Assembly (NCBI GenBank): GCA_963738685.1
Contig: CAVTXK010000002.1
Location: 1,603,815-1,667,814, forward strand
Direction: 5' to 3'
Length of the DNA stretch: 64,000 bases
Source: an uncultured Chloroflexia bacterium
GTDB taxonomy: Bacteria; Chloroflexota; Limnocylindria; Limnocylindrales; CSP1-4
In this document: piece after piece, positions 4,406 to 59,353 of the stretch
Numbering within the stretch: the first letter of the stretch is position 1
How the letters are laid out: each line of letters opens with the position of its first letter
Made by a program: the position numbers and the translations under genes
The notes under the pieces: generated by a model
Databases searched by the model: none
What the model saw: only the letters and a program-made list of their open reading frames with translations
What the model was told of the DNA's origin: nothing

Positions 4406-4411
4406 GCGCAG

Positions 4412-4433: not shown

Positions 4434-4477
4434 CTGTCAACCCCCGAAAACCATCGGCTGCACGGTCCAGTGCCCGC

Positions 4478-5818
4478 TCAGTAGCCGGCGGGCGGCACGG
4501 GCCAGGGCTTCTGGTACTCCACGCGGTCGTACTCCTCGTGCGCTGCAGTCAGTTGCCGGGACCATTTCCGGATGGTCGAGGTCGCGGCCCCGCAATCGGC
4601 GCCATCCAGCCTCGCGTTGAGCTTCTTCACGAAGTCGCGGCTGATACGCACGTGGCCGGCTTCGTGGTCGCGGATGAAGTCGACGACATCCCGCCACCAG
4701 TCGAGGAGCCGCACCGGCACCCGCTTGGGCGCGGTCCAGCGAGGGATGTGGATCGTGAACCGGGCTTTGACACTGGCTCGGGTGATCGTGCAGGTCCCGT
4801 TCGATGCGGTCCGCTCGCGGATGGCGTCCTCGGTATCGGGGAAGGCCGTTATGGCACACGCGGCCGGCCGATCATCGCCTTCGTGCCATTCGTAGTTGAT
4901 CTCGCCACATGCCTTGAGGCCACCACGGGCCATGCTCGCGAAGAGCTCCCCGACCGTATCGCCGCGGACGCCGAAGTAGAGGACCTTGGCACCGTCGACC
5001 GGAGCGCTGATCGCCGGCAGGTTGGCAAGGCCGCCGGCGGTGTTGGGCGGCTCTTCCGGGTCGGGCGACGGCTCGTTCACGACCGCGACCGCTTCCCGGC
5101 GTCCGGTGAGCTCGTACGACGCGGTCTGTTCCTCGCAGCCGGCGGCCGTGCCGATCGATGTCGGCGCAAGCCGCAACTCCAGCGAGCCCATCAGCTGGGT
5201 CGATTCCACCGCCGAGCCGGCGGGACGGGTGGTGGCCGCCCACAGGCGCATGGTCGAGCTGACGGTCGCGCCACCGTGGACTCGACCGCCGAAGTCATCG
5301 AGGCATGGCCCCTCATTCTCGGCCTGGGCCGCCGAGACGTAGCGATCCCCTGCGCGCGAGAGGACGACCACCGACACGGGCTCGGTCCGGCCCAGCGGCG
5401 TCATCGACACCTCGACCGTCGGGCACGGCTCGGTATCGCAACCGGGCGTCACGACGAATGCCTCGTCGTCGAAGGCCGCGTCGCCCGGGATCAGGGCCGA
5501 ACGATCATCGAGCGAGAGGACCTTTCGGACACGCCACTCGCCGGCGATCGGGACGGGCTCGGCCACGGGCGTGGCGGACCCGGTCGGCGCCGCGGATCCG
5601 GTCGGCGGGCCGGGTGTGGCGCGGATGCTCGAGGTCGGCCCCGGACTCGTGGTCCCGGCAGCGTTCCCGTCGGGTGGTGGACTGGCGGACGGGCCGGAGA
5701 GGCCCATGCAGCCTGTTACGACGATGAGGCTGAGGCCCGCGCCGATCCAGCGCGCCGTCCGGCTCGATCGCGCGGCGACGGTCCGCGGACCGAATGCGAA
5801 GCTCCCCCAGCGCGGCAT
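4478..5818 (-). CDS. lipoprotein with C-terminal DUF922-type HExxH putative Zn-protease domain
   Basis: 446 aa. Lipobox LIVVTGC. The C-terminal FIRDHEAGHVRISRDF matches the DUF922/COG5661 signature. Confidence 0.65.
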   Translation of the reverse strand: MPRWGSFAFGPRTVAARSSRTARWIGAGLSLIVVTGCMGLSGPSASPPPDGNAAGTTSPGPTSSIRATPGPPTGSAAPTGSATPVAEPVPIAGEWRVRKVLSLDDRSALIPGDAAFDDEAFVVTPGCDTEPCPTVEVSMTPLGRTEPVSVVVLSRAGDRYVSAAQAENEGPCLDDFGGRVHGGATVSSTMRLWAATTRPAGSAVESTQLMGSLELRLAPTSIGTAAGCEEQTASYELTGRREAVAVVNEPSPDPEEPPNTAGGLANLPAISAPVDGAKVLYFGVRGDTVGELFASMARGGLKACGEINYEWHEGDDRPAACAITAFPDTEDAIRERTASNGTCTITRASVKARFTIHIPRWTAPKRVPVRLLDWWRDVVDFIRDHEAGHVRISRDFVKKLNARLDGADCGAATSTIRKWSRQLTAAHEEYDRVEYQKPWPVPPAGY

Positions 5819-5953
5819 CGCCGCATCCTACCCCGGCACTCCTGCCCGGGCCATTAGGACCATGGGCGTAGACTTCGGGAGTCTCCCGACCCGCCCTCGA
5901 GTCGACGTCTCACTGCCCCCTCGGACGGGCCGAGCAAGTCAGGAGGAGCCGTC

Positions 5954-6352
5954 ATGCAGGCATTTCTCGTTGAGTTGGCCAACAAGCCGGGCGAGTTCGC
6001 GCGCGTCGCCGAGGCCATCGCCGCGAAGGGCGTGAATATCACCGCGGTGAGCGGCAGTACGTGTGGTGACTCGGGCCGCGCGGCGATCATGACGAGCGAC
6101 GTGACGATGACGCGCACGGCGCTCGGCGAGGCCAAGGCCAAGTACACCGAGGTCGAGGCGACCGATACGGCCATCCGCCACGAGCCGGGCTCGCTCGCGA
6201 AGGCATTGCGGCGCCTCGCCGAGGAGAACATCAACATCGAGGCGTTGATGCCGATCGGGATGGAAGGCAATGAGGTCCACGTCGCGTTCGTGACCAACGA
6301 CGCGGCCAAGGCCCGTGACGTCCTGTCCCACGCGGGGATGAAGTCCCGCTAG
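5954..6352 (+). CDS. tandem ACT-domain protein
   Basis: 132 aa. Two repeats of the ACT pattern (LANKPGEFARVAEAIAAKGVNI; HEPGSLAKALRRLAEENINIEAL). AGGAGG RBS. Confidence 0.75.
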   Translation: MQAFLVELANKPGEFARVAEAIAAKGVNITAVSGSTCGDSGRAAIMTSDVTMTRTALGEAKAKYTEVEATDTAIRHEPGSLAKALRRLAEENINIEALMPIGMEGNEVHVAFVTNDAAKARDVLSHAGMKSR

Positions 6353-6361
6353 GAACCTCGT

Positions 6362-7000
6362 TCAGCGTTCCCCGGCGAGGTACGCGTGCCATAGCAGGCG
6401 TGCGGCCACGGCTCGCCATGGCCGCCACGCCTCGGCGATGACCGACTGCTCCGAGCCGGTCGGTAGCGTTGTCATGCCCTTGGCGCGACGCATCGCCCCG
6501 GCCAGCGCCAGGTCGCCCGTCGGCCAGATGTCGGGACGGCCCAACGCCATCAGCAGGTAGATGTCCGCGGTCCATCGGCCGACTCCCAGCACGCTGGTGA
6601 GTCGCGCGCGGGCGTCATCGTCATCCGCCGCCGCGACGGCGTCGAGATCCAGCCGGCCATCGAGCACGTCGCCCGCCAGGCCGAGGAGATAGCGCGACTT
6701 CTGGCGCGTCAGGCCGGCGTCCCGCAGGGCCTGGTCGCCGGCCCGGACGATCGCGGCCGGTTCGATGGCGCCGGCGGCGCGCACCAGCCGTTGTCGAGCG
6801 GCCTCTGCCGAAGCCAGCGAGACCTGCTGTTCGAGGATGATCCGGACGAGCGTCTCGAAGCCGGGCTCGCGGGCCCACAGCGGTGGCGGTCCATGACGCT
6901 CGGCGATCCCGGCAAGGTCCGGGTCGATCGTGGCGAGTTCCCGGACGCCCTCGACGAGCAGGTCGTCGTCCAGCCGAGGCTGGGTCACCGGATCGGTCAT
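6362..7000 (-). CDS. HhH-GPD DNA glycosylase (AlkA-like 3-methyladenine glycosylase II)
   Basis: FETLVRIILEQQVSLASA, LTSVLGVGRWTADIYLL, WPTGDLAL. Start set at the ATG at 7000 (MTDPVTQ). The Arg-rich N-terminal extension of track ORF 6362..7345 looks non-coding. Confidence 0.7.
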   Translation of the reverse strand: MTDPVTQPRLDDDLLVEGVRELATIDPDLAGIAERHGPPPLWAREPGFETLVRIILEQQVSLASAEAARQRLVRAAGAIEPAAIVRAGDQALRDAGLTRQKSRYLLGLAGDVLDGRLDLDAVAAADDDDARARLTSVLGVGRWTADIYLLMALGRPDIWPTGDLALAGAMRRAKGMTTLPTGSEQSVIAEAWRPWRAVAARLLWHAYLAGER

Positions 7001-7331
7001 CGATGCACGGTAGCGGGCCGGGGCCCGTGCGGGCACGCTCGACGTCAGGACGTGCTTGGTAGACGGCAGAAGTTCCCCGGAGGCGCCGAAGGCGGCCGCA
7101 TCGAGCGCCATAGACGTCGATCCGTGCTTGGCAAGCACATCCTGGTGAGCGGGACCGGCTGCAGCAGGCCCGCAGACGCATCCGACCCGATCGTGCCGAC
7201 TGGGAAGCACATTGCGCGATCGAACCGGACGAAGTGGCCGGCCGCGTGCCAGCGGACCGGCCGCCACTCGGCCGGCCGCTCGCCACGGGACCCGCGCCAC
7301 TCGGCCCGCCGCCAGCCGCGGAACGGCCCGC

Positions 7332-8015
7332 TCAATGGGCCGCAAGCGGATCGGTGAGTTCCGTCAGGGTCTCCACAACGGCCGCGGCCCCCGCCGCGCG
7401 CAGCCCTGCCTCGTCGACCGCGGCCCCGGCGGTCACCCCGATCGGGATCATCCCGGCGGCCACGGCCGCGACCATGTCCCAGGTCGCATCGCCGATGTAC
7501 CAGCACCGAGCCGGCTCGACACCGACCTGCGAGGCCGCCAGGAGCAGCAGGTCCGGCTCCGGCTTGGCGTGCTTGACGTTGCTCGCGTCGACGATCCTCG
7601 GTTCCTCGTCCAGCCCGAGGGCCGCGACGGACGTGGCGACCTGGGCCTTCCGGCTCGATGTGGCGATCGCCCACGGCAGCCGGCGCGCCTCGATCGCCCG
7701 GACGAGCTCGCGGACACCGGGGAGTGGGCGAGGGGACTGGTTCAGCCGCTCGTAGACCTCGCCCGACCGCTGGTCGATCGACTCGGCGCGACCATCGTCG
7801 AGCGAGACTCCGGCGAGCGCGGCGATCTCGCGCGCGAGCCGCTTGCCATCGACGCCGATGAGCGGCGCCAATCGATCGCGAGTCGTCGGGAACCCGGCCT
7901 CCTCGAGCGCCACGAGCCACGCATCGATCCGCGTCCCGACGGTGTCGACAAGCGTCCCATCGAGATCGAACAGCACGGCACCCGGGGGCGGCAGTCGGTC
8001 GAGATCGGCGGGCAT
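7332..8015 (-). CDS. HAD-superfamily hydrolase (phosphoglycolate phosphatase-like)
   Basis: 227 aa. Motif I LFDLDGTLVDT, motif II ATSS, KPEPD, motif IV GDATWD. Confidence 0.85.
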   Translation of the reverse strand: MPADLDRLPPPGAVLFDLDGTLVDTVGTRIDAWLVALEEAGFPTTRDRLAPLIGVDGKRLAREIAALAGVSLDDGRAESIDQRSGEVYERLNQSPRPLPGVRELVRAIEARRLPWAIATSSRKAQVATSVAALGLDEEPRIVDASNVKHAKPEPDLLLLAASQVGVEPARCWYIGDATWDMVAAVAAGMIPIGVTAGAAVDEAGLRAAGAAAVVETLTELTDPLAAH

Positions 8016-10519: not shown

Positions 10520-10825
10520 TCAGCGCTTCTGGTTGGTCGGTCGGGTGTTGGCGCCCGTCTGCTGGTCGCCCATGGGTTCCTTGGTGGTGTTGCCCATGTT
10601 GCCCTGGGACTGCGGGTTCGGCTGGCCCTGGTTCTGGCGGCCCTTGTCGCCGTACGTCTCGTCCGGCGAGCGGTCGTCCCAACCCGTGCCCTGAGGCTGC
10701 CCCTGGCCGCTGCCCTGGTTGCCGTGGGTCCCGACCTGGGTCGTGCCCTTGTTCTGGCCACCGGTCTGGTTCTGGCCCTGGTTCTGGCCCTGGTTCTGGC
10801 CCTGGTTCTTGGTCTGGTCACCCAT
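10520..10825 (-). CDS. small Gln/Gly/Asn-rich hydrophilic (probably disordered) protein
   Basis: ATG at 10825 preceded by GGAGGTG at a spacing of 6 nt. MGDQTKNQGQNQGQNQGQNQTGGQNKG... No hydrophobic core. Confidence 0.5.
   Translation of the reverse strand: MGDQTKNQGQNQGQNQGQNQTGGQNKGTTQVGTHGNQGSGQGQPQGTGWDDRSPDETYGDKGRQNQGQPNPQSQGNMGNTTKEPMGDQQTGANTRPTNQKR
10766..10813. repeat. 12-bp tandem repeat CTGGTTCTGGCC (3 perfect + 1 imperfect unit), encoding (GQNQ)n on the minus strand
   Basis: Read directly from the sequence. Confidence 0.9.
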
Positions 10826-44877: not shown

Positions 44878-45480
44878 CTACGGTTCGAGGTGGCTGCCCT
44901 CGTTCCACAGCTCGATCACGCGGTTCGCTCGGTCCCAACCCAGCAGCCCGAGCGTGGCGGTCGAGAGGGCGAACTTGCTGCCGCCGGTCGGCGGCAACTC
45001 GACCCAGCGGGCGGCCAGCACGCGCAGGAAGTGGCCGTGCGCGAAGATCAGCGCGTCGCCGTCGACGGCCGGGTCGAGGCATCGCTCGATGACTCGATCG
45101 GCCCTGGCGCCGACCTCCTCGGGCGTTTCCCCGTCGATCCACGGGCCGGTCCAGATGCTCCAATCCGGGATCTCGGTGCGGATGTCCGCCGTCGTCCGCC
45201 CCTCGAACGCGCCGTAATCCCACTCGTGCAGGTCGGGGTCGATCTCGAGGCGGTCGCCGAACCCGGCGAGCTTGGCGGTCTCCGCCGCACGCGACAGGGG
45301 ACTGCTCAGCACGAGGGCGAACGTCCGACCGGCGAGCCGCTTCCCGAGGGCCCGGGCCTGCTCGCGGCCGGTCTCCGTGAGCGGGATGTCGGTCGTGCCG
45401 GTATGCCGGCCGTTGCGCGCCCACTCGGTCTCGCCGTGGCGAACGAGCCAGATCTGGCGCTCGGCGGCCGGTTCGCTCAC
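44878..45480 (-). CDS. histidine phosphatase (phosphoglycerate-mutase-like) family protein
   Basis: 200 aa. WLVRHGETEWARNGRHTGTTDIPLTETG (RHG motif), later FAHGHFLRV. Confidence 0.85.
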   Translation of the reverse strand: MSEPAAERQIWLVRHGETEWARNGRHTGTTDIPLTETGREQARALGKRLAGRTFALVLSSPLSRAAETAKLAGFGDRLEIDPDLHEWDYGAFEGRTTADIRTEIPDWSIWTGPWIDGETPEEVGARADRVIERCLDPAVDGDALIFAHGHFLRVLAARWVELPPTGGSKFALSTATLGLLGWDRANRVIELWNEGSHLEP

Positions 45481-46043
45481 AGGACCGCCTCCGATCGGGC
45501 GATCTCATCGGATCGGGCCGCGAAGAACTCACGCGGTCGCCAGCCGAAGACCCAGGCCAGGACAAGGGCCGGCACGGTCGAGATCCTCGTGTTGTAGCGG
45601 TAGACCTGGTCGTTGTAGAGCTCGCGGCGGTCCGCGATCATGCTCTCGAGGCGTTCGATCTCGTCCTGCAGGTCGAGCACGTTCTGCTGCGACTTGAGCT
45701 CCGGATAGGCCTCGACGACGGCGAACAGCGAGCGGACCGCGGCGGTCGTGGCGTCGGAGTGGACGGCCTGGTCCGGGATGGGCTCGGTGGGGGAGTAGGC
45801 GGCCCGAGCCTGCGCCACTTCCGTGAGCACCTGCTGCTCGAAGGCCAGGACGCCGCGCACCGCCGACACGAGGGCGGGCAGTTGGTCGTGGCGCTGCTTG
45901 AGCGCGACATCGATGTTGGACCAGGCCTTGTCGATGCGTTGCCGTAGTGCCATGACAGCGTTGTAGTTTGCTACCACGATGAACGCCACGATCGCGACTA
46001 CGAGTCCGACGGCGAACGCGGCGACCATCGAGGCGGGGGTCAT
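45477..46043 (-). CDS. lemA: LemA family protein
   Basis: 188 aa. N-terminal TM helix, YNAVMALRQRIDKAWSNIDVALKQRHDQLP, YNTRI. Confidence 0.9.
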   Translation of the reverse strand: MTPASMVAAFAVGLVVAIVAFIVVANYNAVMALRQRIDKAWSNIDVALKQRHDQLPALVSAVRGVLAFEQQVLTEVAQARAAYSPTEPIPDQAVHSDATTAAVRSLFAVVEAYPELKSQQNVLDLQDEIERLESMIADRRELYNDQVYRYNTRISTVPALVLAWVFGWRPREFFAARSDEIARSEAVL

Positions 46044-47129
46044 GGGGCGAGCTCCGGGCCGACCATGAGCGCCAACGCCAGCGCACAGCCGATCGCGAGC
46101 ACCGCGCCGAGCAACCCGATGATGAACCGATCCTGGAATCGGTCGGCGGCGACGCCCGGCACCCCATGCGCGATCAGCAGCGGCACATCCGGCGCGCTGG
46201 CCATGACCAGCGCGCCGGGCGCGATCGCGAACCGTCGTTCGATCTGCGCAGCTTCCTCGGGCGGCGCCACCGGCAGGGCCTGGGCCGCGGGATCCAGCTC
46301 CGGCGTTCGCACCGGCCGTCCGACCCCGAAGCCGGGGATCGCGGCGTTGCCCCAGGCCTCCTCGGGGGTATCGGCCAGCAGCCCGGCCTCCCGCGCCTCC
46401 GCGATGTTCGCGTTGACCTCGTAGTCGTCGACGGCCACCTCCGATCCGAGCGCGATGTCGGCCTCGGCCGGATCCGCCAGGTCGGAGAAGGGCATCGCCC
46501 GGCCGACGATCGTGACCGGATCGCCGGGCTCCAATCGAGACTCGCGGTACCGTCGCCCCCGATCGGACCCGCCCATCCCGCCCGCGCCGTCGCGGAGCAA
46601 CGGATGTCGATTCGCGTCGACTGCCGGTCGGACCGACAACAGCACGGCGATGGCCGCCTCGCGGTCCAGCTCGGCTGCCGGCAGCGCGATCGCGCCACCG
46701 GTCCGCAAGGCCAGGCCGGGCGGCTCGTCCCCGAACGTCCCGGTCCGGTCGTCGAAGCTCATCGGTACGTCCCAGCGACCCCCGCGCGGGAAGACCCGGA
46801 TGTCGCCGGAGGCGTCACGGACCCGAAAGCCGATGGCCCGTTCCTCGTCGAAGTCGGCGCTCCCCGAGTCATCATCCCGGTCCACGGTTGCCCGGTAGTA
46901 CACGCACGGCCGGCTCTGCAGCGGGGAGATGAGCGTCACCTCGGCCGCCTCGACCACGCCGCTCACCCGCACCTCGCCGGCCGCCAGCGAGCGGATCGTC
47001 GACGTGCCGGTGTCACCGATCCGGGTCGCGCTGCGATAGCCCCGACATCCCGCGTACCAGGAGCCACAGCCCGGCGACCACGCCGGCGGCCGCCAGCGCG
47101 GCGACCAGCCCATCGAACCCCGACTCCAT
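46040..47129 (-). pseudogene. GIDE-domain membrane protein, one apparent +1 frameshift near the 5' end
   Basis: The ATG at 47129 gives MESGFDGLVAALAAAGVVAGLWLLVRGMSG (TM helix). The rest (YRSATRIGDTGTSTIRSLAAGEVRVSGVVEA...) is in the frame of 46040..47137. The junction is the CCCC run at 47040-47043. There is a C-terminal TM helix. Confidence 0.65.
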
Positions 47130-47162
47130 GCACGCATCGTACGGGGCTTGCCGACCCCGCCG

Positions 47163-47339
47163 TCAGCTTTCCGGACGACCGGGCCGGAAGGAGAGCACGA
47201 CCAGGACGACGCCCAGCACGACCGAGGCGATCGGCCAGAGCCGCCCGAGATCGAACCCCGGAAGAGCCTCGCGGGCGAGGAACAACGCCCCGATGATGAT
47301 GAGGACCAGGCCGGCGGCGATCGCCCCGCGGCCGCTCAC
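47163..47339 (-). CDS. small two-TM membrane protein (DUF5668/LiaI-LiaF-TM-like)
   Basis: The GTG overlaps the upstream stop (GTGA). VSGRGAIAAGLVLIIIGALFLAREALPGFDLGRLWPIASVVLGVVLVVLSF. Confidence 0.45.
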   Translation of the reverse strand: MSGRGAIAAGLVLIIIGALFLAREALPGFDLGRLWPIASVVLGVVLVVLSFRPGRPES

Positions 47340-48319
47340 GAGCAGCCCTCCTCGGGGTTGAGTCGGAACGACCCGGCATTCGCCTCGGTCCGGAGCTCGA
47401 TGCGGATCACCGCGGTGTCGTACCCGGGCGTCTCCCACGCCTCCCCGACCTGGACGAGCCCCGCCTCCCCGAAGTCCTGCGAGGAAAGGACGCTGTCCCC
47501 GGTAAGCAGACGCAGCGCCACATCGCGTGGGGCGCACAGGCGGATGCTGCCGGCATTGGCCTCGATCGAGCCCGTCATCGACAGCGACGGCAGATCGAGC
47601 CCGAGCTCGCCCGCATTGATGCCGATCTCAACCCCTTCGATCTCGACGATGTCGCGCAGGTCGATGATCGCCTGCCCGGCATTGACGTCGACGGTCACGA
47701 TGGCCACCCGTGCCTCCTCGAGATCGACGGTCATCCGCCCCGCATTGAGCTCCAGGCCGAGGTCGAGGCGGCTCTCCGTGGGCAGGGTGATGAGCCAGTC
47801 GTCGCGCTCCCCGAGGAGGTTCGCCGGCCCCGAGTCGGACGGGCCGATGTCGAGCTCGTCGGCCCCACGGTCGATCTGGGGTCCGGTGCCGTCCTCGTCG
47901 GTGCCCTCGACGGTCCAGCCGTTGCCTGGGCCCGTCCCGATCTCGACCTCTCCACAGTCCAGCGTGACGCGTACCTGTGCGTCGGTGCCGAGGGTCCCTG
48001 ATCTCGGCTCGAACGGGACGCCACCCTCGTCCGGCCCACAGACCCCGGACGGGAAGCCGGCGAGGCCGCCGAACCCGCTGGCGAGCGCCCCACCGACGAG
48101 GATTCCCAGCGTGGCCGAGACGATCAGCCCGCCAAGGACCTCCAGCGGCGTCTTCGTGAAGATCAGGCCGAGCCCGGCGCCGACCAGGAGCAGCGGCCAG
48201 AACGACCACCAGCGATCGAGCACCGCGGGATCGAGCGCGCCCGTCTGCACGGCCAGCGGTACTCCGCCGGCCACGATGAAGAAGACGCCCCAACCGAGCA
48301 GGTCCTTGTTGACGCGCAC
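47336..48319 (-). CDS. membrane protein with C-terminal DUF4097/LiaF-like 'toastrack' beta-helix domain
   Basis: 327 aa with 3-4 N-terminal TM helices. Repetitive ...LELNAGRMTVDL..VDVNAGQAIIDL..IGINAGELGLDL..IEANAGSIRL..TEANAGSFRL strands. Confidence 0.6.
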   Translation of the reverse strand: MRVNKDLLGWGVFFIVAGGVPLAVQTGALDPAVLDRWWSFWPLLLVGAGLGLIFTKTPLEVLGGLIVSATLGILVGGALASGFGGLAGFPSGVCGPDEGGVPFEPRSGTLGTDAQVRVTLDCGEVEIGTGPGNGWTVEGTDEDGTGPQIDRGADELDIGPSDSGPANLLGERDDWLITLPTESRLDLGLELNAGRMTVDLEEARVAIVTVDVNAGQAIIDLRDIVEIEGVEIGINAGELGLDLPSLSMTGSIEANAGSIRLCAPRDVALRLLTGDSVLSSQDFGEAGLVQVGEAWETPGYDTAVIRIELRTEANAGSFRLNPEEGCS

Positions 48320-48445
48320 GCCGTCACGATACGCGCCGGCGCCTCCTCGCGCACCTCGTCATGCGGTCCGATGGTCGTGTGCTAGCCTCCGGCGAACGGC
48401 CGGGACGGGTCCGGCACGTGCCATCCTGTTAGAGAGGATCCGCGC

Positions 48446-48988
48446 ATGCGCCTGAGCGACTGGCGGGCTCGAGCCCCGCACAAGGACGCGATGACCCTCA
48501 AGGTCACGGCGGTCATCGAACCAGTCCTGTCGTCGCTGGGCGCCGAGTCCGATCCGTCCTGCTGGGTCGCGTGGGGGGACGACCCGGCGGTGCGCTACAC
48601 GATCCTGGCGCCGACGCCGGCAGGCCTCGTCGTCGCCCATGTCCGGGTGAACGTCCCGCAGGAGGGCCCACGGGCGGGCGGCAAGGTCGTCCGCTGGAGC
48701 CGGGTACAGATCGGCGAGCTCGCCATCGAGATGGCCGGCGGGCATCGATTGATCAGCTTCCAGGTCGAAAACCAGGTCATGCGTGGCTCCGACGCCGACG
48801 CCGATACCATCGCGGCCTTCGCGCTCGAGCTGTTCGCCGCCATCGATGGCCGGACCTACACGCCACCGACCACGAAGGGCCGGCGCAAGCCGAAGCCGGC
48901 ACCCACGAAGACCACGGCCGCGTCGTCGCGCACGCCCGGCCGGACGGCGCCACGCAAGTTGCTCCCGCCGCCGGGGGCCGGCTCCTGA
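48446..48988 (+). CDS. hypothetical protein with basic Pro/Lys/Thr-rich tail
   Basis: 180-aa ORF with protein-like composition. No motif recognised. Confidence 0.5.
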   Translation: MRLSDWRARAPHKDAMTLKVTAVIEPVLSSLGAESDPSCWVAWGDDPAVRYTILAPTPAGLVVAHVRVNVPQEGPRAGGKVVRWSRVQIGELAIEMAGGHRLISFQVENQVMRGSDADADTIAAFALELFAAIDGRTYTPPTTKGRRKPKPAPTKTTAASSRTPGRTAPRKLLPPPGAGS

Positions 48989-49005
48989 CTGGCGCTTCGC
49001 CCACC

Positions 49006-49857
49006 GTGACCCCGCCAGGGCGGCCGCGGCAGGTCCATCCGCTCCGAAGGACGATCCGGTACTGGGCGTCGCGGCTCGTGGCCGCTGCCGTGACGCGCGG
49101 CTGGCTGCGCATCCGGGTCGAGGGGATCGAGCGACTGCCCGGTGGGCCGGCCATCTATGCCTTCAACCACCTGTCGTGGGTCGACCCGTTCGTGCTGATG
49201 GCGACGCTGCCATTCCGTCCCCGGCTGTTCTTCTTCGGGCCCAAGGAGGAGGACATGGGGGCCGGCGGCCGAAATCGACTGATGCACTGGACCGGCGCCA
49301 CGATCCCCTACAAGCCCGGCAAGAACGACCTGCTGGAGGCGACCCGGCGCGTCGGCGCGGTCATCGCCGACGGCGGCGTCGTCGCGATCGCCGGGGAAGG
49401 ACGGATCGGGGCCATCGAGTCGGCGATCCTGCCGCTCAATGACGGCCCAGCCTACTTCGCGCTTCGCTCGCGGATCCCGGTCGTCCCGATCGCGATCAAC
49501 GGGGTGAGCTGGCTCCGCTTCGGCGGTCGGATCCGGGTGCGGGTCGGTGCGCCCATCAGGGGCGAGGGCCGACCCGATCGCGCGGCTGTTGCCGCCCTGA
49601 CGGCCGAATTGGAAGGCGCGCTGGCCGCGCTCGTGGCCGACGCTCCGGACCCCGAGCGTACCGGACGGGTGGCCCGCTGGCTGACGGATCGGTTCAACGA
49701 CTGGCCGGAAGGATCGCGCGAGGCCGCCCTCGAAGCGCAGCTGACCGGAACGACGGCCTCATCGACCGGTTCGGCCATCGTCGCCGAGGGCGTCGGTCCG
49801 CAACCCCCACCGCCTCCGACCACCGACTTGGACCCCGGAGCGTGGGCCGGCAGCTGA
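49006..49857 (+). CDS. 1-acyl-sn-glycerol-3-phosphate acyltransferase (PlsC/LPLAT family)
   Basis: GTG at 49006 in the frame of track ORF 48571..49857. HX4D motif NHLSWVDP, AGEGRI, VPIAING. Confidence 0.8.
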   Translation: MTPPGRPRQVHPLRRTIRYWASRLVAAAVTRGWLRIRVEGIERLPGGPAIYAFNHLSWVDPFVLMATLPFRPRLFFFGPKEEDMGAGGRNRLMHWTGATIPYKPGKNDLLEATRRVGAVIADGGVVAIAGEGRIGAIESAILPLNDGPAYFALRSRIPVVPIAINGVSWLRFGGRIRVRVGAPIRGEGRPDRAAVAALTAELEGALAALVADAPDPERTGRVARWLTDRFNDWPEGSREAALEAQLTGTTASSTGSAIVAEGVGPQPPPPPTTDLDPGAWAGS

Positions 49858-49915
49858 GCGAGTCGGTCTGGCATACTCGGGCGGACGTCCCCAGGTCCAC
49901 TGCACAGGAGCGTTC

Positions 49916-50281
49916 GTGGCAGCGACCGGCCTTTCGCCCGACCCGACCGAGTACCGAGCCCGCCTGACCGAGCAGAGCGACGAACAGATCGATCTCTGGG
50001 CCGCGGAGATGATGCGCGATGTCGCCAAGCGCCGCGGCGTCCTCCGGGTCCTCGACGATTTCCGCCGGTCGGCCAAGCTCGACGAGCGCGATATCGAACG
50101 GGTGTTCGCTTCTGGCGGTGGCCCGACGGCGGTGGTCGGCCGCGACGCCACCGGCCGGCAGATGATCCCGGCCGTCGCCCTGTTCGCGCTGGTGCCGGGC
50201 ATCCGCGCCGATGCGCCGGACGGTCGACAGCGCCTGATCGACTACCTCGTCGAGAACTTCGACGAGCTCGTTTACGTCTGA
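49916..50281 (+). CDS. hypothetical protein
   Basis: 121-aa ORF with balanced composition. No motif recognised. Confidence 0.45.
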   Translation: MAATGLSPDPTEYRARLTEQSDEQIDLWAAEMMRDVAKRRGVLRVLDDFRRSAKLDERDIERVFASGGGPTAVVGRDATGRQMIPAVALFALVPGIRADAPDGRQRLIDYLVENFDELVYV

Positions 50282-50297
50282 GGCCGTCGGCCTCCGT

Positions 50298-51119
50298 CTG
50301 GCGGGTCTGGTCCGCCTCGTCCACCCGTTTCCCTCGCTCCTCGATGGCGTCGTCGTCGCCGCCGTCGCCCTGGTCGCCGGGGGAGAACCGGGTGTCGCCG
50401 CCGCACTCGGGGTCTCGATGACGGCCCTCCAGGCATCGATCGGCGCCGTGAACGACCTCCACGACGCCCCAGCCGACGCCGGCCGCAAGCCGGGCAAGCC
50501 GATCCCCGCGGGACTGGTCTCGGTCCCAGTTGCACGGGTCGTGGCGGTGGTGGGCGCCGTGCTTGGGTTGCTGCTGGCGACGACCGTGGACCCGCGTCTG
50601 ACCGTCCTGGCGGTCGCGGTCCTGGCCATCGGCTATGGGTACGACCTGCTCGCCAAGGGGACGGCCTGGTCGTGGCTACCGTTCGCGGTCGGGATCCCCA
50701 TCCTGCCGGTGTACGGGTGGCTCGGCGGGGCGGGGTCCCTCCCGGCCTTCTTCGGTGTGCTCATCCCGATGGCGGTCGCGGCCGGGGCGGCCCTCGCCAT
50801 CGCCAACGCCCGGGCGGATGCGGAACGCGATATCGTGGCCGGGACGACGTCGATCGCCACGCGGCTCGGTCTCGAATGGTCGTGGCGGCTCCACGCCGCG
50901 CTGTGGGTCATCGTCGTCGCCCTCGGGCTGGGCTGGCTGGTCGGCGCCGCCGTTCCGGCCGCGCGGTGGCTGCCGGTCGCCGCCGCCGTCGCGATCCTGG
51001 GAGTCGGTGTCGTGGCGGGACGGCGGGCCGACGCGCCCGGGCGAGAGCGAGCGTGGCAGGTGGAAGCCGTCGCGGTCGCCTTGGCCCTCGTGGCCTGGCT
51101 GAGCGTCGCGCTGGGTTAG
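50298..51119 (+). CDS. UbiA-family prenyltransferase (start codon unresolved)
   Basis: NDLHDAPADAGRKPGKPIP (NDxxD Asp-rich motif) and about 8 TM helices. The first TM helix (LVRLVHPFPSLLDGVVVAAVALVAGG) lies upstream of the first ATG (50418). The frame is open from 50238 with no ATG/GTG/TTG, only CTG at 50298 and 50307. Confidence 0.65.
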   Translation: MAGLVRLVHPFPSLLDGVVVAAVALVAGGEPGVAAALGVSMTALQASIGAVNDLHDAPADAGRKPGKPIPAGLVSVPVARVVAVVGAVLGLLLATTVDPRLTVLAVAVLAIGYGYDLLAKGTAWSWLPFAVGIPILPVYGWLGGAGSLPAFFGVLIPMAVAAGAALAIANARADAERDIVAGTTSIATRLGLEWSWRLHAALWVIVVALGLGWLVGAAVPAARWLPVAAAVAILGVGVVAGRRADAPGRERAWQVEAVAVALALVAWLSVALG

Positions 51120-52153
51120 CCCCCGGAGTCGCCCGTCCGGACGAGGGCGATGGCATTCTCCAGCCGGAGCTTCGCGATCGTGAGGTACTTCGCGAGGTTG
51201 GCTCGATCGACCTCGCCGATGGAGCGGACCGCCTCCGGTGAGCGCAGGACGCCAACGAGGTCATCCAGGGCCTCGCCCAACGACTGCTTGGCATTGACCA
51301 GTGAGTCATCGCCGATCTCGACGAGGATCTCCGAAGCGGGCAGGGGCTCGGGCGCCGGCAGCACGCCGTCCTCGAGCTGGAGGTCCGCCTCCTCGTGGGC
51401 GGCATCGTCGATCCCGATCGAGTCGGTCGCTCGGGCGGACCGGGTTCGCCGGCCCTCGATCTTGTCGCGAAGTTTGACGAGCGTGAGCTCACCACGCGCC
51501 ACCTGATCGGCCAAGCGCTTGCGCTTCCGTGGGTCGTCGACCTTCATGAGTTCGTACGCATGCGACAGGGTGTCTTTGCGCAAGGACACAAGCTCGCGAA
51601 CCTCCGGGGGCGCATCCGCGAGGCGCAGCCGGTTCTCCAGGTAGCCCTTGTCCTTACCCAGCTTGTCCGCCAGCTTGCGGATGCTGTACCCATGCTCGCG
51701 GACCATGCGGTCGTACATGGCGGCTTCGTCGAGCGGCGAGATGTCTTCGCGCTGGAGGTTCTCGATGATCGAGATCTCGAGCGCGGTGTCGTCGTCGATC
51801 TCCTCGATGAGCGCCGGGATCGTCGCCAGGCCCGCCTGCTTCGTGGCCCGCCAGCGACGCTCTCCGGCGACCAGCTGGTAGCGGTTCTGACCGGTCGGCC
51901 GGACGAGGATGGGCTGGAGGACGCCGTGCTCGCGGATCGACGCGGTCAGCTCATCGAGCGTGTCCTGGTTGAAGGCGAGGCGCGGCTGCTGCGGGTTCGA
52001 TTCGATGTGTTCGACGGGGACGATGCGAACGCCCACGCTGCGGGTGACGGCGTCGTTCGACAGGAGGCTGACGATCGCGGGCGAGAGTTCGCGCTCCTCG
52101 GACAGGCGGCGTGCAGCGGTAGCTCGGAAATCAGGGCGCGCCAAGGTCGACAA
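51116..52153 (-). CDS. parB: ParB/Spo0J-family partition protein (divergent)
   Basis: 345 aa. [43 protein letters not shown] (arginine patch), [26 protein letters not shown]. Confidence 0.85.
51570..51589. promoter_or_regulatory. palindrome copy 1 (GTGTCTTTGCGCAAGGACAC) inside parB
   Basis: Core 51572-51587 GTCTTTGCGCAAGGAC, 19/20 symmetric. Encodes VSLRKDT of ParB. Confidence 0.6.
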
Positions 52154-52922
52154 CCTCCCTCGCCAGCTCGCGATACGTGCGAGCCGCCTCGCTGCTGCCG
52201 GCGTACGACGTGATCGGTCGACCGACCAGCGGCGCCTCGCCGAGCTTCACGGTGTTGCGGACGATGCTGCTGAAGACGTGGTGGTCACCCACGACGCGCA
52301 GTTCGTCGAGCATGTCGCGCGCCAGGTTCGTCCTGCCGTCGTAGAACGTCGGCAGGAGCCCGAGGATGCGCAGGTCCCGGTTCAGCTTCAGCCGGATCGC
52401 GTTGATGACCTTGACGAGATTGGTCAGGCCCTTCATCGCGTAGTACTGCGTCTGCACCGGGATGATCACGCCACTCGCCGCGACAAGGCCGTTGACCGTG
52501 AGGAGGCCGAGGTTGGGCGGGCAGTCGATGATGGTGTAGTCGTAGCCCTCGAGATGGCCCTCGATCGCCTCGCGCAGGATCTGCTCGCGCCCGAGGGCCG
52601 TGAACAACTCACCCTCGGTGGAGGCCAGATCGATGTGGGCAGGTGCGACGTCGATCCCGGCACTGTCGGTCGCCAGCACGATCTCGGGGAGCGTTGCGCG
52701 CCCATCGGCGAGGACGTCGGCCATGGACCGCTCGACCGTGTTGAGGTTGATCCCGAGGCCGGCGGTCAGGTTCGCCTGCGGATCCATATCGATGCAGAGG
52801 ACGCGATATCCCTCCTCGGCGAGCGCGCCGGCGAGATTGATCGCCGTCGTCGTCTTCCCGACGCCACCCTTCTGGTTGGCGATCGCGATCACATTGGTCA
52901 CAGGGGCATCACCTCGGATCAT
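52131..52922 (-). CDS. parA: ParA/Soj-family partition ATPase
   Basis: Deviant Walker [27 protein letters not shown]. Start taken as the ATG at 52922 (alternative ATG at 52973). Overlaps parB by 23 nt. Confidence 0.85.
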
Positions 52923-53006
52923 CGGCCCGGCTGGGGGAGACCGGCGTGGCGGGACGGGCGGGATGTCGACCATGCTACTCCAGGCATGGCTGTCGCGAAC
53001 GCGCGG

Positions 53007-53051
53007 GTTATCCACACGGATCGGGAGTTGTTCACCATTTCCGTGGATAAC
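53007..53051. promoter_or_regulatory. inverted pair of DnaA-box-like 9-mers: GTTATCCAC(A) ... GTGGATAAC, 27-nt spacer
   Basis: TTATCCACA at 53008-53016 is the exact E. coli-type DnaA box. The reverse complement of 53042-53050 is TTATCCACG. A TATGAT -10-like hexamer follows at 53060-53065. Confidence 0.4.
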
Positions 53052-53072
53052 TGGGACCGTATGATGGCCGGT

Positions 53073-53088
53073 GTCCTTGCACAAAGAC
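53073..53088. promoter_or_regulatory. palindrome copy 2 (GTCCTTGCACAAAGAC) in the pccB leader
   Basis: 7 nt downstream of TATGAT and about 30 nt upstream of the GGAGG (53103) + TTG (53116) start signals. Confidence 0.55.
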
Positions 53089-53115
53089 GGGCTGCGCACG
53101 ACGGAGGTCGACACG

Positions 53116-54660
53116 TTGGCGACGAATGAGGAGCGTTCTGCGCGGCTCGATGCGATGCGCGCCGAGGCGTTGCTCGGTGGCGGATCGGAACGCATCGAAC
53201 AGCAGCACGAACGCGGAAAGCTGACGGCGCGCGAGCGACTCGAGCTGCTCCTGGATGCGGGGTCGTTCGTGGAGCTCGACGCATTCGTCACGAATCGCAA
53301 CCCCGAAGTAGAAACGGCGTTCCTCGGCGATGGGGTCGTGACGGGCCACGGCAAGATCGACGGTCGGCTCGTCTTCGTCTTCAGCCAGGACTTCACGGTC
53401 TTCGGCGGGTCGTTGTCGGAGGCCTACGCCGAGAAGATCTGCAAGATCATGGACATGGCGATGAAGGTCGGGGCGCCGATCGTCGGGCTCAACGACTCGG
53501 GTGGCGCACGGATCCAGGAAGGTGTCGTGTCGCTCGGTGGCTACGCTGACATCTTCCTGCGTAATACATTGGCGTCCGGGGTCGTGCCGCAGATCTCCGT
53601 CGTCATGGGCCCGTGCGCCGGGGGAGCGGTGTATTCACCGGCGATCACCGATTTCACGGTGATGGTCGAAGGCACGAGCTACATGTTCGTGACCGGGCCC
53701 AATGTCGTTCGTGCCGTCACCCATGAGGAGGTCGACGCCGAGCGGTTGGGTGGAGCGACCACGCACACGACGCGCAGCGGGGTCGCGCACCTGGCCGCCC
53801 ACGACGAGGCCGAGGCGCTGGCCGCCGCGCGACGGATCCTCGGCCATCTGCCCCAGAACAACCTGGGCGACGCACCGATCGTGGTGTCGTCCGATCCGAT
53901 CGACCGCCAGGATCCGGGCCTGGACACGATCGTCCCCGATGACCCGTCGCGGCCATACGACATGCACGAGGTCATCGAGGGCATCGTCGATGACCGGGCC
54001 TTCCTCGAGATCCAGCCGGGATGGGCGCCGAACATCATCACGGGCTTCGCGCATCTCGGCGGGCGAAGTGTCGGGATCGTGGCGCAACAGCCGGCCGTCC
54101 TGGCGGGTGCGCTCGACATCGACGCATCGACCAAAGCGGCCAGGTTCGTCCGGACGTGCGACTGCTTCAATGTGCCGTTGCTGACGCTCGTCGACGTGCC
54201 GGGGTTCATGCCCGGGGTCGAACAGGAGCACGGCGGAATCATCCGCCACGGCGCCAAGCTGCTCTATGCGTATTGCGAGGCAACGGTCCCCAAGCTCACC
54301 GTCATCACGCGCAAGGCGTACGGCGGCGCATACGACGTCATGTCGAGCAAGCACGTCCGCGGCGACATCAATCTGGCGTGGCCGACGGCAGAGATCGCGG
54401 TCATGGGCGCGGAGGGGGCCGTGAACATCCTGAACCGCGACGAGATCGCGGCAGCGAGCGATGCGGTGGCAGAACGCGCGCGTCTCGTCGCCGACTACGA
54501 GGAGCGATTCGCGAACCCGTACGTCGCGGCGGCGCGCGGGTATGTCGACGACGTCATCAAGCCGTCCGAGACACGGCCGCGGCTGATCGCGGCGCTGGAG
54601 ATGCTGGCGAACAAGCGCGACACCAACCCACCGAAGAAGCACGGCAACATCCCGTTGTGA
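53116..54660 (+). CDS. pccB: propionyl-CoA carboxylase beta subunit / acyl-CoA carboxyltransferase
   Basis: [54 protein letters not shown]. The TTG at 53116 has a GGAGG RBS. The track start GTG at 53071 has none. Confidence 0.9.
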
Positions 54661-56261
54661 CCACGACCTCCGACTCGGCCCGCCCGTCTTTGCGCAAGGA
54701 CAGGTCGGGGCCGCCATTCCACCGGCTGTTGGTAGCGAACCGGGGGGAGATCGCGGTGCGGATCATCCGCACCTGCCGAGACCTGGGTGTCGAGACGGTC
54801 GCGGTGTTCTCGGACGCCGACGCGGATGCCCTCCATGTCCGCCTGGCCGATGCCGCGGTCCGCCTTGGACCCGCACCGGCGGGGGAGAGCTACTTGCGAT
54901 CCGATGCGATCGTCGCCGCGGCGCTGGCCTCGGGCGCCGAGGCGATCCACCCCGGTTACGGCTTCCTGTCGGAACGCGCGTCGTTTGCTCGAGCGGTCGC
55001 GGACGCCGGTCTCGTCTTCGTCGGCCCGAGTGACGAGGCGATCGACGCGCTCGGCGACAAGCTTGCCGCGCGGCGGACCGCACAGGCCCACGGCGTGCCC
55101 GTGGTCCCGGGTACGTTCGAGCCGGCACCGGTAGATCGCCCCGACGATGTCGGCGCGATCCTTGCAGAGGCGGAGCGCATCGGGTTCCCCTTGCTGGTCA
55201 AGGCCTCGGCCGGCGGCGGTGGTCGCGGGATGCGGCGGGTCACCTCGGCGAACGACCTGCCGACTGCGCTAGCGGCCGGTTCCGCCGAGGCACGCGCCGC
55301 GTTCGGAGATGGGGCCGTCTACCTCGAATGTGAGATCAGCCCGGCGCGGCATATCGAGGTCCAGCTGCTCGGCGACGCCGACGGGACGATCGTGGCGCTC
55401 GGCGAGCGCGATTGCTCCATCCAGCGCCGACACCAGAAGCTCGTCGAGGAGACACCGGCCCCGGGCCTGACCGTCGGGGAGCGCGCGGCGTTGCATGCCA
55501 TGGCCGTCATGGCCGCACGGGCGGCGAATCTGCACAACGCGGCGACCGCGGAGTTCCTCTTCGATGCCGATCGACGGTTCTGGTTCCTTGAGGTCAACGC
55601 TCGCCTCCAGGTCGAGCACGGCGTGACGGAACTCGTCACGGATCTGGACCTCGTCGCGGAACAACTCTGGATCGCCGCCGGCGCCCCGTTGTCGGATGAG
55701 GCCCGGAGCGCCGCGGACGCCGCCGCGACACCGACCCGCCACGCGATCGAGATCCGCCTTGCGGCCGAGGACCCGGCACGCGATTTTGCGCCCGCGCCCG
55801 GGCGGATCGGATCGTGGGTGATGCCATCGGGACCGGGGGTTCGCGTCGACACGGCGATCCGTCCTGGCGAACGCGTGCCGCCCGACTACGACCCGCTCAT
55901 CGCCAAGGTCATGACGGTGGGCGCGGATCGACGGGAGGCGCTCCTGCGGATGCGGCGCGCCCTCGACGAGATCGAGGTGACCGGCATCCAGACGACCTTG
56001 CCGTTCGACCGCGCGCTCCTGCGTGATCCGGCCTTCGTGGACGGGGAGGCGCTCGGGACCGACTGGGTCGAGCGACGCTGGGATGGCGCCGAGGACCGAG
56101 CACGATCGTATCGACGGGCGGCCGAAGCGGCGGCGGCCGCGAGCCAGGTCGACGCCGACGGCGGTCGTGACGAAGGGTCGTCTTTGCGCAAAGACGCCGA
56201 GCTCGGCGGAGCGTGGCTCGAGGCCGGGCGCGCCGCCGCGATCTCGCGCTGGCCGCGATGA
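54657..56261 (+). CDS. biotin carboxylase subunit of acyl-CoA carboxylase (no BCCP domain)
   Basis: The GTG overlaps the pccB stop (GTGA). [47 protein letters not shown]. Has a roughly 60-aa non-conserved C-terminal tail. Confidence 0.9.
54686..54701. promoter_or_regulatory. palindrome copy 3 (GTCTTTGCGCAAGGAC), about 25 nt after the pccB stop
   Basis: The 16-mer is identical to the parB copy. Confidence 0.55.
56179..56196. promoter_or_regulatory. palindrome copy 4 (CGTCTTTGCGCAAAGACG, perfect 18 bp), about 60 nt upstream of the BCCP start
   Basis: Read directly. Confidence 0.55.
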
Positions 56262-58450: not shown

Positions 58451-59353
58451 GTGATGGATCGACCTCTGACGGCCGACCTCCACGAACGGCTCGCCCCCGA
58501 GGGCAGCGGGGGTTTCGTCGTGGCGAGTGCGGTGGATCCGTCGGCCATGGCGGCCCTCGCCAACGAGTTCGGCGCGCGTCACGCGGTCCTGGATGGCCCG
58601 ACGACGAAACGCGGCCTGATCGAGGCGCTCGCCCGGGGTCTCGACTTCCCGCCGAGGACCGGCCGGACCTGGGCTGCGCTCGAGGGATGGCTCGCCCGAC
58701 CCGAGCCGCCGTTCGACGGACCGGTCATCGTTACGTGGCTGCATCCGGCCCGCCTCGACCCGGCCGATGCCGGGACGTTCCGCTCGATCGTCGATCAGGC
58801 GGCGGCCGCCCGGCAGGCCGCGGGTGGTGGCCACCTCCTCGTCGTCGCCGGACCGGCTCTTTCGGCCACGGGCGGGGTCCCCGTCGCCCCGGCGGTCCCG
58901 AGTGCGATCCGTGGCCTCGGCAAGGTCCACCATGTCGCGCTCATCGTCGCCTCGATCGAGGACGCGCTGGGGTTGTGGCAGGAGATGCTCGGGCTGGAGC
59001 TCGAGACGGTCATGGACATCGCCTCGGACCGCGTCCGGATCGCGTTCCTCCGCGTCGGCGAGTCCAAGATCGAGCTCGTGCAACCGACCGACGATACGAC
59101 CGGGGTCGCGCGGTTCCTGGCCTCGAAAGGGGAGGGCTTCCACCACGTCTGCTTCGAGGTCGCGAACCTGGCCGAGACGCTCTTGCGTCTCGAGATCGAC
59201 GGCCTGGAGCTCATCGACTCAGCCCCCAGGCGTGGCGCCGAGGGACCCGTCGCGTTCATCCATCCGCGGTCGTGCCACGGCGTCCTCGTCGAGCTCATCG
59301 AGGCGCCAGGGGGTCCGGCCTGGCACGCCCTGGGATTCGAGTCGCCGAGTTGA
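58451..59353 (+). CDS. fusion: N-terminal barstar-like domain + C-terminal methylmalonyl-CoA epimerase (VOC fold)
   Basis: 300 aa. AVLDGPTTKRGLIEALARGLDFPPRTGRTWAALEGWL aligns with barstar [39 protein letters not shown]. The C-terminal KVHHVALIVASIEDALGLW...GEGFHHVCFEV...IHPRSCHGVLVELIE is MCE-like. Confidence 0.7.
   Translation: MMDRPLTADLHERLAPEGSGGFVVASAVDPSAMAALANEFGARHAVLDGPTTKRGLIEALARGLDFPPRTGRTWAALEGWLARPEPPFDGPVIVTWLHPARLDPADAGTFRSIVDQAAAARQAAGGGHLLVVAGPALSATGGVPVAPAVPSAIRGLGKVHHVALIVASIEDALGLWQEMLGLELETVMDIASDRVRIAFLRVGESKIELVQPTDDTTGVARFLASKGEGFHHVCFEVANLAETLLRLEIDGLELIDSAPRRGAEGPVAFIHPRSCHGVLVELIEAPGGPAWHALGFESPS

Follow-up and report, generated by a model that had tools for sequence, protein, structure and literature searches.

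Chromosomal parS sites are among the most conserved cis elements of bacteria. In the canonical ParABS systems (Spo0J/ParB of B. subtilis, Caulobacter and Thermus), parA and parB form an operon, ParB combines a ParB_N CTPase domain with an HTH_ParB domain, and the parS centromere is a 16-bp perfect palindrome with T-tract arms and a central CG, present in several copies around parAB. In B. subtilis, a parS site also lies within spo0J. The locus described here shares all of these traits, including a copy of the palindrome inside parB, but its palindrome is a different one. It lies in a 64,000-nucleotide stretch of DNA (hereafter the window) from an uncultured Chloroflexia bacterium of the CSP1-4 lineage of Limnocylindria (contig CAVTXK010000002.1, positions 1,603,815 to 1,667,814), in which four copies of a motif with the perfect form GTCTTTGCGCAAAGAC surround a parAB pair and the adjacent operon for propionyl-CoA carboxylase (pcc). 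Judging from the sequences of the protein, of the sites and of their relatives, these palindromes are likely to be the parS centromere of the adjacent divergent chromosomal ParAB, and hence to represent a new parS variant. We found no description in the literature of this motif, or of parS in Limnocylindria/Chloroflexi.

Three further systems of the ParB family offer close comparisons. The parS sites of the Bsr group are specific to their own ParBs and mutually orthogonal; they are 16-bp palindromes whose 5' arm is T-rich and whose 6-bp core, around a central CG, consists of two C, two G, one A and one T (PMC5450999). Compared by site description, the window motif fits this format with the core TGCGCA, and in both cases related ParB families have related but distinct parS sites. 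However, the Bsr systems (ParBc2, ParBc3, pBC and others) belong to the secondary chromosomes and plasmids of Burkholderiales, on secondary replicons of Proteobacteria, whereas the present locus is found in a Chloroflexota class and on the main chromosome, as follows from the presence of dnaG, rpoD and sucCD in the same window, which also holds a DEAD-box helicase gene and a tRNA-Asn. The second system is Noc with its binding sites (NBS), where a few substitutions in the ParB fold re-target it to another 16-bp palindrome: the residues at positions 173, 179, 184 and 201 (R, T, A, G in ParB; Q, K, K, R in Noc) suffice for the switch between parS and NBS (PMC7383237). The window ParB carries K, R, D and S at these four positions, is encoded in an operon with parA and has its sites clustered at the locus; Noc, in contrast, has no ParA partner, and its ATTTCCCGGGAAAT-type sites are scattered over the chromosome. 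The third system, KorB of IncP plasmids, is a ParB-family CTPase that combines partition with regulation and has palindromic sites at or near promoters; likewise, one of the window palindromes lies at about +1 of a putative pcc promoter. The KorB operator OB has the sequence TTTAGCSGCTAAA. It differs from the window motif, and KorB is plasmid-borne and works with KorA, whereas here regulation is a possibility raised by the position of a site. The KorB matches of the window ParB are a weak Pfam match, below the curated cut-off, and PDB 8QA8 at 4e-15.

An initial annotation of this DNA had reported four copies of the palindrome and proposed that they form a non-canonical parS, an operator of the pcc operon or an RNA hairpin. 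A search of the 64 kb with GTCTTTGCGCAAAGAC, allowing up to 3 mismatches, returned exactly four matches, all within 4.6 kb, so that both the four copies and the lack of a further full copy were borne out. The chance expectation, from dinucleotide-preserving shuffles, is 0.14 matches, and four were reached in none of 100 shuffles; chance recurrence is indeed negligible. The matches at 51572, 53073, 54686 and 56180, which the pattern GTCYTTGCGCAARGAC also describes, have 1, 2, 1 and 0 mismatches, respectively. The sites are:

S1, 51572 to 51587: GTCTTTGCGCAAGGAC, within parB, immediately 3' of the codons of the helix-turn-helix (HTH) recognition helix, reading S190-L-R-K-D194 on the minus strand.
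S2, 53073 to 53088: GTCCTTGCACAAAGAC, in the parA-pccB spacer, 7 nt 3' of a TATGAT hexamer and 27 nt 5' of the TTG at 53116.
S3, 54686 to 54701: GTCTTTGCGCAAGGAC, at the pccB-accA junction, starting 25 nt past the pccB stop.
S4, 56180 to 56195: GTCTTTGCGCAAAGAC, the perfect copy, in the non-conserved 3' tail of accA, ending 62 nt 5' of the ATG (56258) of the biotin carboxyl carrier protein (BCCP) gene.

S1 extends to the 20-mer GTGTCTTTGCGCAAGGACAC, and S4 is part of a perfect 18-mer palindrome, CGTCTTTGCGCAAAGACG, at 56179-56196. In these details, as in the 7-nt distance from TATGAT, the GGAGG/TTG start of pccB and the 25 nt after the pccB stop, the first description proved accurate, and its "about 60 nt" between the fourth copy and the BCCP start is 62 nt in the sequence. 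The two half-sites it had listed, at 56870 and 33765, are absent from the exact matches to the half-site GTCYTTGC, which occur elsewhere in the window at 19269, 19515, 28286 and 36956; this is about the number expected by chance, and no half-site enrichment above chance was seen in the 64 kb. The spacing of the sites, about 1.5 kb, results from the gene lengths. With the exception of S1, the sites occupy places that tolerate 16-18 bp, namely spacers and non-conserved protein termini; at S1, the ParB sequence and the site have apparently co-evolved.

The two partition genes are arranged as follows:

51116 to 52153, minus strand: parB, encoding a ParB/Noc-family CTPase (Pfam ParB_N 2e-37, HTH_ParB 3e-17).
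52131 to 52922, minus strand: parA, encoding a small Walker-type partition ATPase (Pfam AAA_31 2e-60, CbiA, ParA); it overlaps the parB start and may itself begin at ATG 52922 or at a GTG close by.

The ParB protein is about 40-45% identical to canonical ParB over the ParB_N and HTH_ParB domains and keeps the CTPase motifs GERRWRA and ENLQRE intact. Its PDB matches (E of about 1e-37 to 1e-42) are Noc, Caulobacter ParB, Thermus Spo0J, Myxococcus ParB and B. subtilis Spo0J, with Noc structures at the top. The usual ParB N-terminus is an LG(R/K)GL-type peptide, which the window ParB does not have. The initial annotation had called this ParB divergent from Spo0J, and an alignment to Caulobacter ParB (6T1F) locates the divergence where DNA is read, with the differences Q162I, S172D, R173K, T179R, A184D, G201S and R204Y. 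The residues Q162, G170, K171, S172, N178 and R204 contact DNA and are common to ParB and Noc, while R173 and G201 were reported to be invariant in about 1,800 ParB orthologues (Jalal et al. 2020, PMC7383237). Three of the six common contact residues are thus changed in the window ParB, which moreover lacks both of the residues reported as invariant, and a protein altered in this way is therefore not expected to read canonical parS.

Consistently, the canonical site TGTTNCACGTGAAACA has no match in the 64-kb window at up to 3 mismatches, as had been noted before, and in 476 kb from 65 related loci a search at up to 2 mismatches gave one weak, chance-like match with 2 mismatches. The window site, composed of the half-sites GTCTTTGC and GCAAAGAC, differs from canonical parS in that its T-tracts stand 2 bp closer together. 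The locus also differs from the canonical one in its surroundings, as it is not beside rsmG, jag or dnaA but fixed between a UbiA-family gene and the pcc operon. Because neither the parS consensus nor the specificity residues match, we do not assign the pair to the canonical parS/Spo0J class. Among the plasmids of PLSDB no close homologue of this ParB was found, the best match, from other taxa, being about 43% identical.

The altered recognition segment (GKDKGY[LIV]...LVS[LV]...) is invariant in 38 of 38 related loci, although overall ParB identity falls as low as 51%. Of the 150 nearest representatives of 50%-identity clusters, 52 are defined by it; beyond these, at about 35-45% identity, ParB is of the canonical R/G/R type.

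The palindrome is conserved together with this protein. A scan with GTCYTTGCGCAARGAC of GTDB representatives (one genome per species, a 596-Gb collection) gave at least 120 loci, to which genes were assigned by tblastn with the window proteins; taxa are named here as in the records, and certain contigs, such as the "beta proteobacterium" L037, have evidently been mis-binned. Among the matches listed, some 65-75 of 120 loci are syntenic with the window, in the order UbiA-parB-parA followed by pccB-accA-BCCP-mcm-epimerase, and their metagenome-assembled genomes (MAGs) are labelled Limnocylindria, Limnocylindrales, Chloroflexia or Chloroflexota, including CSP1-4. ParB in these loci is 51-86% identical to that of the window (tblastn). 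The palindrome recurs at the same positions in these orthologous loci: S1 at the same parB codons in 38 related loci, S2 in the parA-pccB spacer of 38, and S3, the best conserved site, in 43, mostly in perfect form. S4, at the accA 3' end, was found in just 8 and is thus a facultative extra site. Fully covered related loci carry 3-4 copies each.

Around S2, S3 and S4 the flanks have no similarity among loci while the 16-mer is kept, so that the footprint is sharp. It is, in fact, slightly longer than the 16-mer: in 98 of 98 non-coding copies it is preceded by a pyrimidine and followed by a purine, a symmetry that lies outside the search pattern. The site thus extends to an 18-bp dyad, YGTCYTTGC/GCAARGACR, in which Y/R is tolerated at position 4/13. 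Since the scan of the collection had selected loci by the motif, three loci were picked solely by the similarity of their ParB proteins and were read together with the 10 kb to either side (21 kb per locus). The palindrome occurs exactly three times in each of these loci, at the places of S1, S2 and S3, and nowhere else in the 21 kb; the three copies of one locus (L128) are all variants outside the reach of the search pattern. A survey of 11-mers in 50 loci found only the palindrome, coding-sequence words and a DnaA-box module (described below) to be shared near parAB, and no alternative parS-like motif.

A few loci carry extra copies at other operon boundaries, namely after the epimerase gene, facing sucD (L005, 2686), and upstream of mcm (L014, 7978; L011, 2107 and 2232); one of the two copies in L011 lies inside a longer inverted repeat, ccccT-site-Agggg. 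Also in L011, two sites persist beside parA although pccB, accA and BCCP are absent from that spot.

One may ask whether the motif is a generic dispersed repeat of the repetitive extragenic palindromic (REP) type, or a restriction/modification or recombination motif that happened to be sampled here. Four Chloroflexota contigs could be taken to point this way, each with a single perfect or near-perfect intergenic copy near unrelated genes: a thiamine-pyrophosphate (TPP) enzyme and a rhodanese (L059, 1039), HflX and a methyltransferase (L062, 2657), FmdE (L105, 985) and a trypsin-like protease (L110, 2620). These lone copies may be additional parS sites or chance matches. However, every copy in the window falls within 4.6 kb of the 64 kb, the remaining approximately 17 kb of each of the three 21-kb homologous loci hold none, and the positions are orthologous across species, unlike those of mobile repeats. 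About 75 of the 120 listed matches fall in the one syntenic locus; the others are single hits in unrelated phyla, near the order expected by chance (an estimated 500 or so per 16-mer in 596 Gb). The behaviour of a dispersed element was thus seen neither in the window nor in the three 21-kb loci nor in the at least 120 listed loci, and we regard such an origin as extremely improbable.

Site S1 offers a further view of what is conserved, as it lies in a coding sequence. There, the Leu codon is TTG in 30 of 33 loci, against a background of 5.4% in the same genes, and the Lys codon is AAA in 28 of 39 (8% background); the Ser codon is TCT or TCC in 38 of 38, whereas TCG and AGC together make up about 70% of the background, and the Arg codon is CGC in 39 of 40 (44% background). 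The use of rare codons indicates that S1 is under selection at the DNA level within parB.

All four copies had been said to lie in the same relative reading frame and to read S-L-(R/H)-K-D on whichever strand is coding. This holds for the maximal open reading frames (ORFs), but only the first and fourth copies are certainly coding, the fourth in the non-conserved C-terminal tail of AccA, and the second lies upstream of the probable pccB start, TTG 53116. As a palindrome gives the same reading on either strand once the relative frame is set, information can come only from the choice of frame, and for S3 that choice varies: relative to the conserved AccA peptide ANRGEIA, the site reads SLRKD in 28 loci, VFAQR in 9 and LCAKT in 6. 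S3 thus occurs in all three frames and is not conserved as a peptide. With S2 upstream of the probable pccB start and the flanks unconserved, a peptide-level explanation was rejected.

Conservation of the sites also bears on the proposal that the palindrome acts in RNA, as a hairpin with a GUCUUU/AAAGAC stem and a GCGC loop that would control processing, stability or translation of the pcc (and parB) transcripts. The perfect copy can indeed fold into a 6-bp hairpin (about -7 kcal/mol if two flanking pairs are added), S3 and S4 lie between cistrons, and in some two thirds of the loci accA is in frame with a TTG within S3 that could serve as its start codon. Yet more than 120 copies show no compensatory change, and the supposed loop GCGC and the flanking Y/R are conserved as well as the stem. 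GTCC...AAAGAC, which is the most frequent variant both of S2 (read in the pcc sense) and of S1 (read in the parB sense), places a C.A mismatch in the middle of the stem, and such variants fold no better than shuffled sequences. An A/U-rich stem of 6 bp would in any case be weak for a genome of 70% G+C, and Rfam finds only tRNA in the window and nothing at the sites. A sequence conserved in this manner disfavours the hairpin, to which we give very little credence.

Within the clade, synteny by itself does not tell whether the sites belong to ParB or to pcc, as parAB and pcc are neighbours in nearly all of the genomes examined. The comparison was therefore extended to the closest relatives of this ParB outside the lineage. 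A second clade of ParB, with the recognition region GKGKGY(I/V)E(D/S)RLRL...RPDTLTHARE, is 43-52% identical to the window ParB and is represented by three loci on mobile-element-like contigs (L121, L122 and L123), which encode a TraG/TrwB-like coupling protein, a relaxase, Mrr, an N6/N4 methyltransferase, RadC and a recombinase. No pcc genes occur at these three loci. All three carry the perfect palindrome GTCTGGACGTCCAGAC, in seven copies in 51 kb: directly upstream of parA (L122 and L123), inside parB (all three) and downstream (L123). The copies are at 10555-10570 and 10779-10794 in L121, at 8792 and 10418 in L122, and at 4554, 6185 and 8999 in L123. GTCTGGACGTCCAGAC has the outer GTCT...AGAC and the central CG in common with the window motif, and in L121 one copy encodes S-G-R-P-D at the very codons that give S-L-R-K-D in the window parB.

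It was also observed that the copies of GTCTGGACGTCCAGAC inside the parB genes of this clade repeatedly read V-S-G-R-P-D-T, in the linker in L122 and L123 and beside the HTH in L121. The S-L-R-K-D of the window shows the same preference of frame.

A third clade (G(K/R)SKGYVQNRL(R/H)LL...), from MAGs labelled Roseiflexaceae, Chloroflexales and Oscillochloridaceae, is found in contexts rich in integrase, transposase and excisionase genes. Its parB linker carries GTATTTACGTAAATAC, GTACTTACGTAAGTAC (twice) or GTATTYCCAGRAATAC, in which the symmetric arm co-changes; with one or two copies per locus, the pairing of palindrome and ParB in this clade is suggestive. Among the Chloroflexales mobile elements, four loci (L124-L127) have palindromes of this type some 750-930 nt into parB, in the gene order excisionase-like HTH_17 gene, ParA, ParB and then antirepressor or YhcG; two of these (L124 and L125) have another palindrome, TGTCGTA(G/C)CTACGAC(G/A), upstream of the HTH_17 gene.

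Three ParB recognition regions thus correspond to three related 16-bp palindromes, with half-sites of the form GTNTNNNC and GNNNANAC, in or beside parAB. Covariation of this kind is the signature expected of cognate ParB-parS pairs. Within the lineage, the two sites kept beside parA in L011, where pccB, accA and BCCP are missing, and the tRNA-Met gene that separates S2 from pccB in L016 and L119 (described below) argue in the same direction. Since sister clades without pcc carry their own related palindromes, the palindrome follows ParB and not pcc, and the sister-clade palindromes are the strongest evidence that the window sites are probably a parS. Together with the altered and clade-conserved specificity residues, the lack of canonical parS nearby and the codon choice that maintains S1, they favour the first of the three proposals in the initial annotation.

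Several observations weigh against the identification of the palindromes as parS. The assignment of ParB as the protein that binds them is inferential, and, given the near-constant adjacency of parAB and pcc, it is the sister clades and S1 that set it apart from a pcc function. Three of the four sites coincide with cistron boundaries of the pcc operon, and S2 is beside a -10-like hexamer, an arrangement that an operon operator would also show. The inner TTTGC/GCAAA resembles the ScfR-family motif TTTGCAAA. The four lone intergenic copies in unrelated contexts have been described above, and no dnaA or dnaN is found among the annotated ORFs of the window.

These points lead to the most serious rival, a dimeric regulator of the ScfR family (PccR, RamB, PrpR) that would use the sites as operators of pccB-accA-BCCP-mcm, with ParB as an unrelated neighbour. 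Regulators of this family recognise TTTGCAAA palindromes and govern propionyl-CoA pathways, pccB among them (PMC6765138). The window motif contains TTTGC-GCAAA and stands in the same pathway of propionyl-CoA carboxylase and methylmalonyl-CoA; in most related loci a conserved TAnnAT hexamer precedes S2 by 7-32 nt, and S3, S4 and the extra sites in L005, L011 and L014 are all at cistron boundaries of the same operon. However, ScfR sites are tandem 8-bp palindromes upstream of promoters, whereas here a single 16-18 bp dyad, centred on TTTGCGCAAA, is found between cistrons and inside parB, with two extra central base pairs and with the outer GTC/GAC equally conserved. S1, at a distance of 1.5 kb inside parB, is maintained by selection for rare codons; the context of S3 does not resemble a promoter; and no regulator gene, ScfR-like or other, is present in the conserved block or among the approximately 50 annotated ORFs of the window. 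In the most divergent lineage, represented by L016 (where ParB is 51% identical) and L119 (a fragment outside which parB falls), a tRNA-Met gene, with TATACT before it, stands between S2 and pccB (4367-4442 and 247-322, respectively). Finally, sister clades without pcc have analogous palindromes in their parAB, and an operator function would leave a ParB with re-wired recognition residues lacking a candidate site. As the primary function of the sites, regulation of pcc by such a protein therefore appears improbable, although a side effect of ParB on pcc transcription through S2 is possible.

With a parS function of the palindromes in mind, one may outline how the locus would work. A ParB dimer would recognise each half-site through an HTH whose base-contacting residues have diverged, and would nucleate at three to four sites over some 3-4.6 kb around parAB. 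By homology with the ParB CTPases, it would then bind CTP, close as a clamp and spread from the sites over the parAB-pcc region, and the resulting partition complex would be moved by ParA. According to this model, segregation of the chromosome would depend on this system and not on a canonical one encoded elsewhere. As a likely by-product, ParB at S2 would dampen or time the transcription of pcc, and perhaps of parAB; a protein bound at S2 would probably hinder transcription of pcc.

The regulatory side of the locus involves the following features:

53008 to 53050: DnaA-box module, TTATCCACA-N11-TTGTTCACC-N7-TTATCCACG (the last as reverse complement), upstream of parA and adjoining the pcc -10 hexamer.
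53060 to 53065, plus strand: -10-like hexamer TATGAT of the putative pcc promoter (TAtgAT, TAgaAT or TAtcAT in relatives).
53116 to 54660, plus strand: pccB, carboxyltransferase (Pfam Carboxyl_trans 5e-201), with the probable start TTG 53116.
54657 to 56261, plus strand: accA, biotin carboxylase (Pfam Biotin_carb_N, CPSase_L_D2, Biotin_carb_C), with an uncertain start at GTG 54657 (overlapping the pccB stop) or further downstream.

The maximal ORF of pccB begins at GTG 53071, but a ribosome-binding site, GGAGG (53103-53107), precedes TTG 53116, and the conserved N-terminus of the relatives, (M)xTN(E/D)ER, begins at the position of this TTG. Pfam also confirms BCCP, methylmalonyl-CoA mutase and the epimerase. 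Relative to the putative pcc promoter, S2 of the window is at about +1. As a consensus sigma-70 scan at S2 found no full -35/-10 promoter, with no matching -35, the promoter is proposed from the conservation of the hexamer alone. A second conserved element, catGCTAc at 52965-52975 (reverse complement TAGCAT), about 35 nt from the DnaA module, is likely the -10 of parA; for this element, too, the consensus scan found no -35.

The DnaA-box module consists of two perfect or near-perfect inverted DnaA boxes around a third box, TTGTNCACC, and its two boxes are the only DnaA-box matches in the 64 kb. It is separate from the palindrome and is kept in nearly all of about 35 related spacers, some 80-120 nt upstream of parA, which suggests that DnaA may control parAB, pcc or both. 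An origin of replication (oriC) between parA and pccB, suggested by the perfect DnaA boxes and by a cumulative GC-skew minimum near 50 kb, was considered but is not favoured: there are only about three boxes and no AT-rich unwinding region, the genes around the locus have mixed orientations, and the skew minimum is within noise at the 64-kb scale. One may speculate that the chromosomal ParB-parS has been co-opted in a KorB-like manner, so that S2, S3 and S4, together with the DnaA module, would couple the expression of pcc and parAB to the replication-segregation cycle; a further speculation is that the whole ParAB-parS set was captured from a mobile element and took the place of an ancestral, canonical chromosomal system. 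These are tentative ideas, which we consider rather unlikely.

If the palindromes are indeed parS, a widespread and mostly uncultured class of soil and freshwater bacteria, with its replaced ParB residues and its other palindrome, would represent a natural experiment in protein-DNA co-evolution. The ParB/Noc specificity switch would gain a third solution (K, R, D, S) and further ones, and the failure of consensus-based predictions of parS and of origins in these MAGs would be explained. At least three new and probably orthogonal ParB/parS pairs, with the sites GTCTTTGCGCAAAGAC, GTCTGGACGTCCAGAC and GTAYTTACGTAARTAC, would become available for DNA labelling. The fixation of sites in a metabolic operon beside DnaA boxes presents, in addition, a testable link between segregation, replication control and metabolism.

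Some minor features of the neighbourhood complete the description. The flanking synteny of the window (45477-48358 and 48446-51119) is kept in L128-L130, with genes for LemA, an unknown 365-aa protein, a LiaF-like membrane protein, an acyltransferase/HAD protein and UbiA on one flank and a methyltransferase, DinB and sucDC on the other, which marks the locus as a stable chromosomal neighbourhood and not an island. The methylmalonyl-CoA epimerase (Glyoxalase_4; 58451-59353) is extended at its N-terminus by some 150 aa, in which a weak Barstar-like match (1.5e-5) was seen, and the same fusion was called in L130. In that locus (5165-7468) the biotin carboxylase and BCCP were, moreover, called as one fusion of 767 aa, whereas in the window they are separate and joined by an ATGA overlap at 56258-56261.

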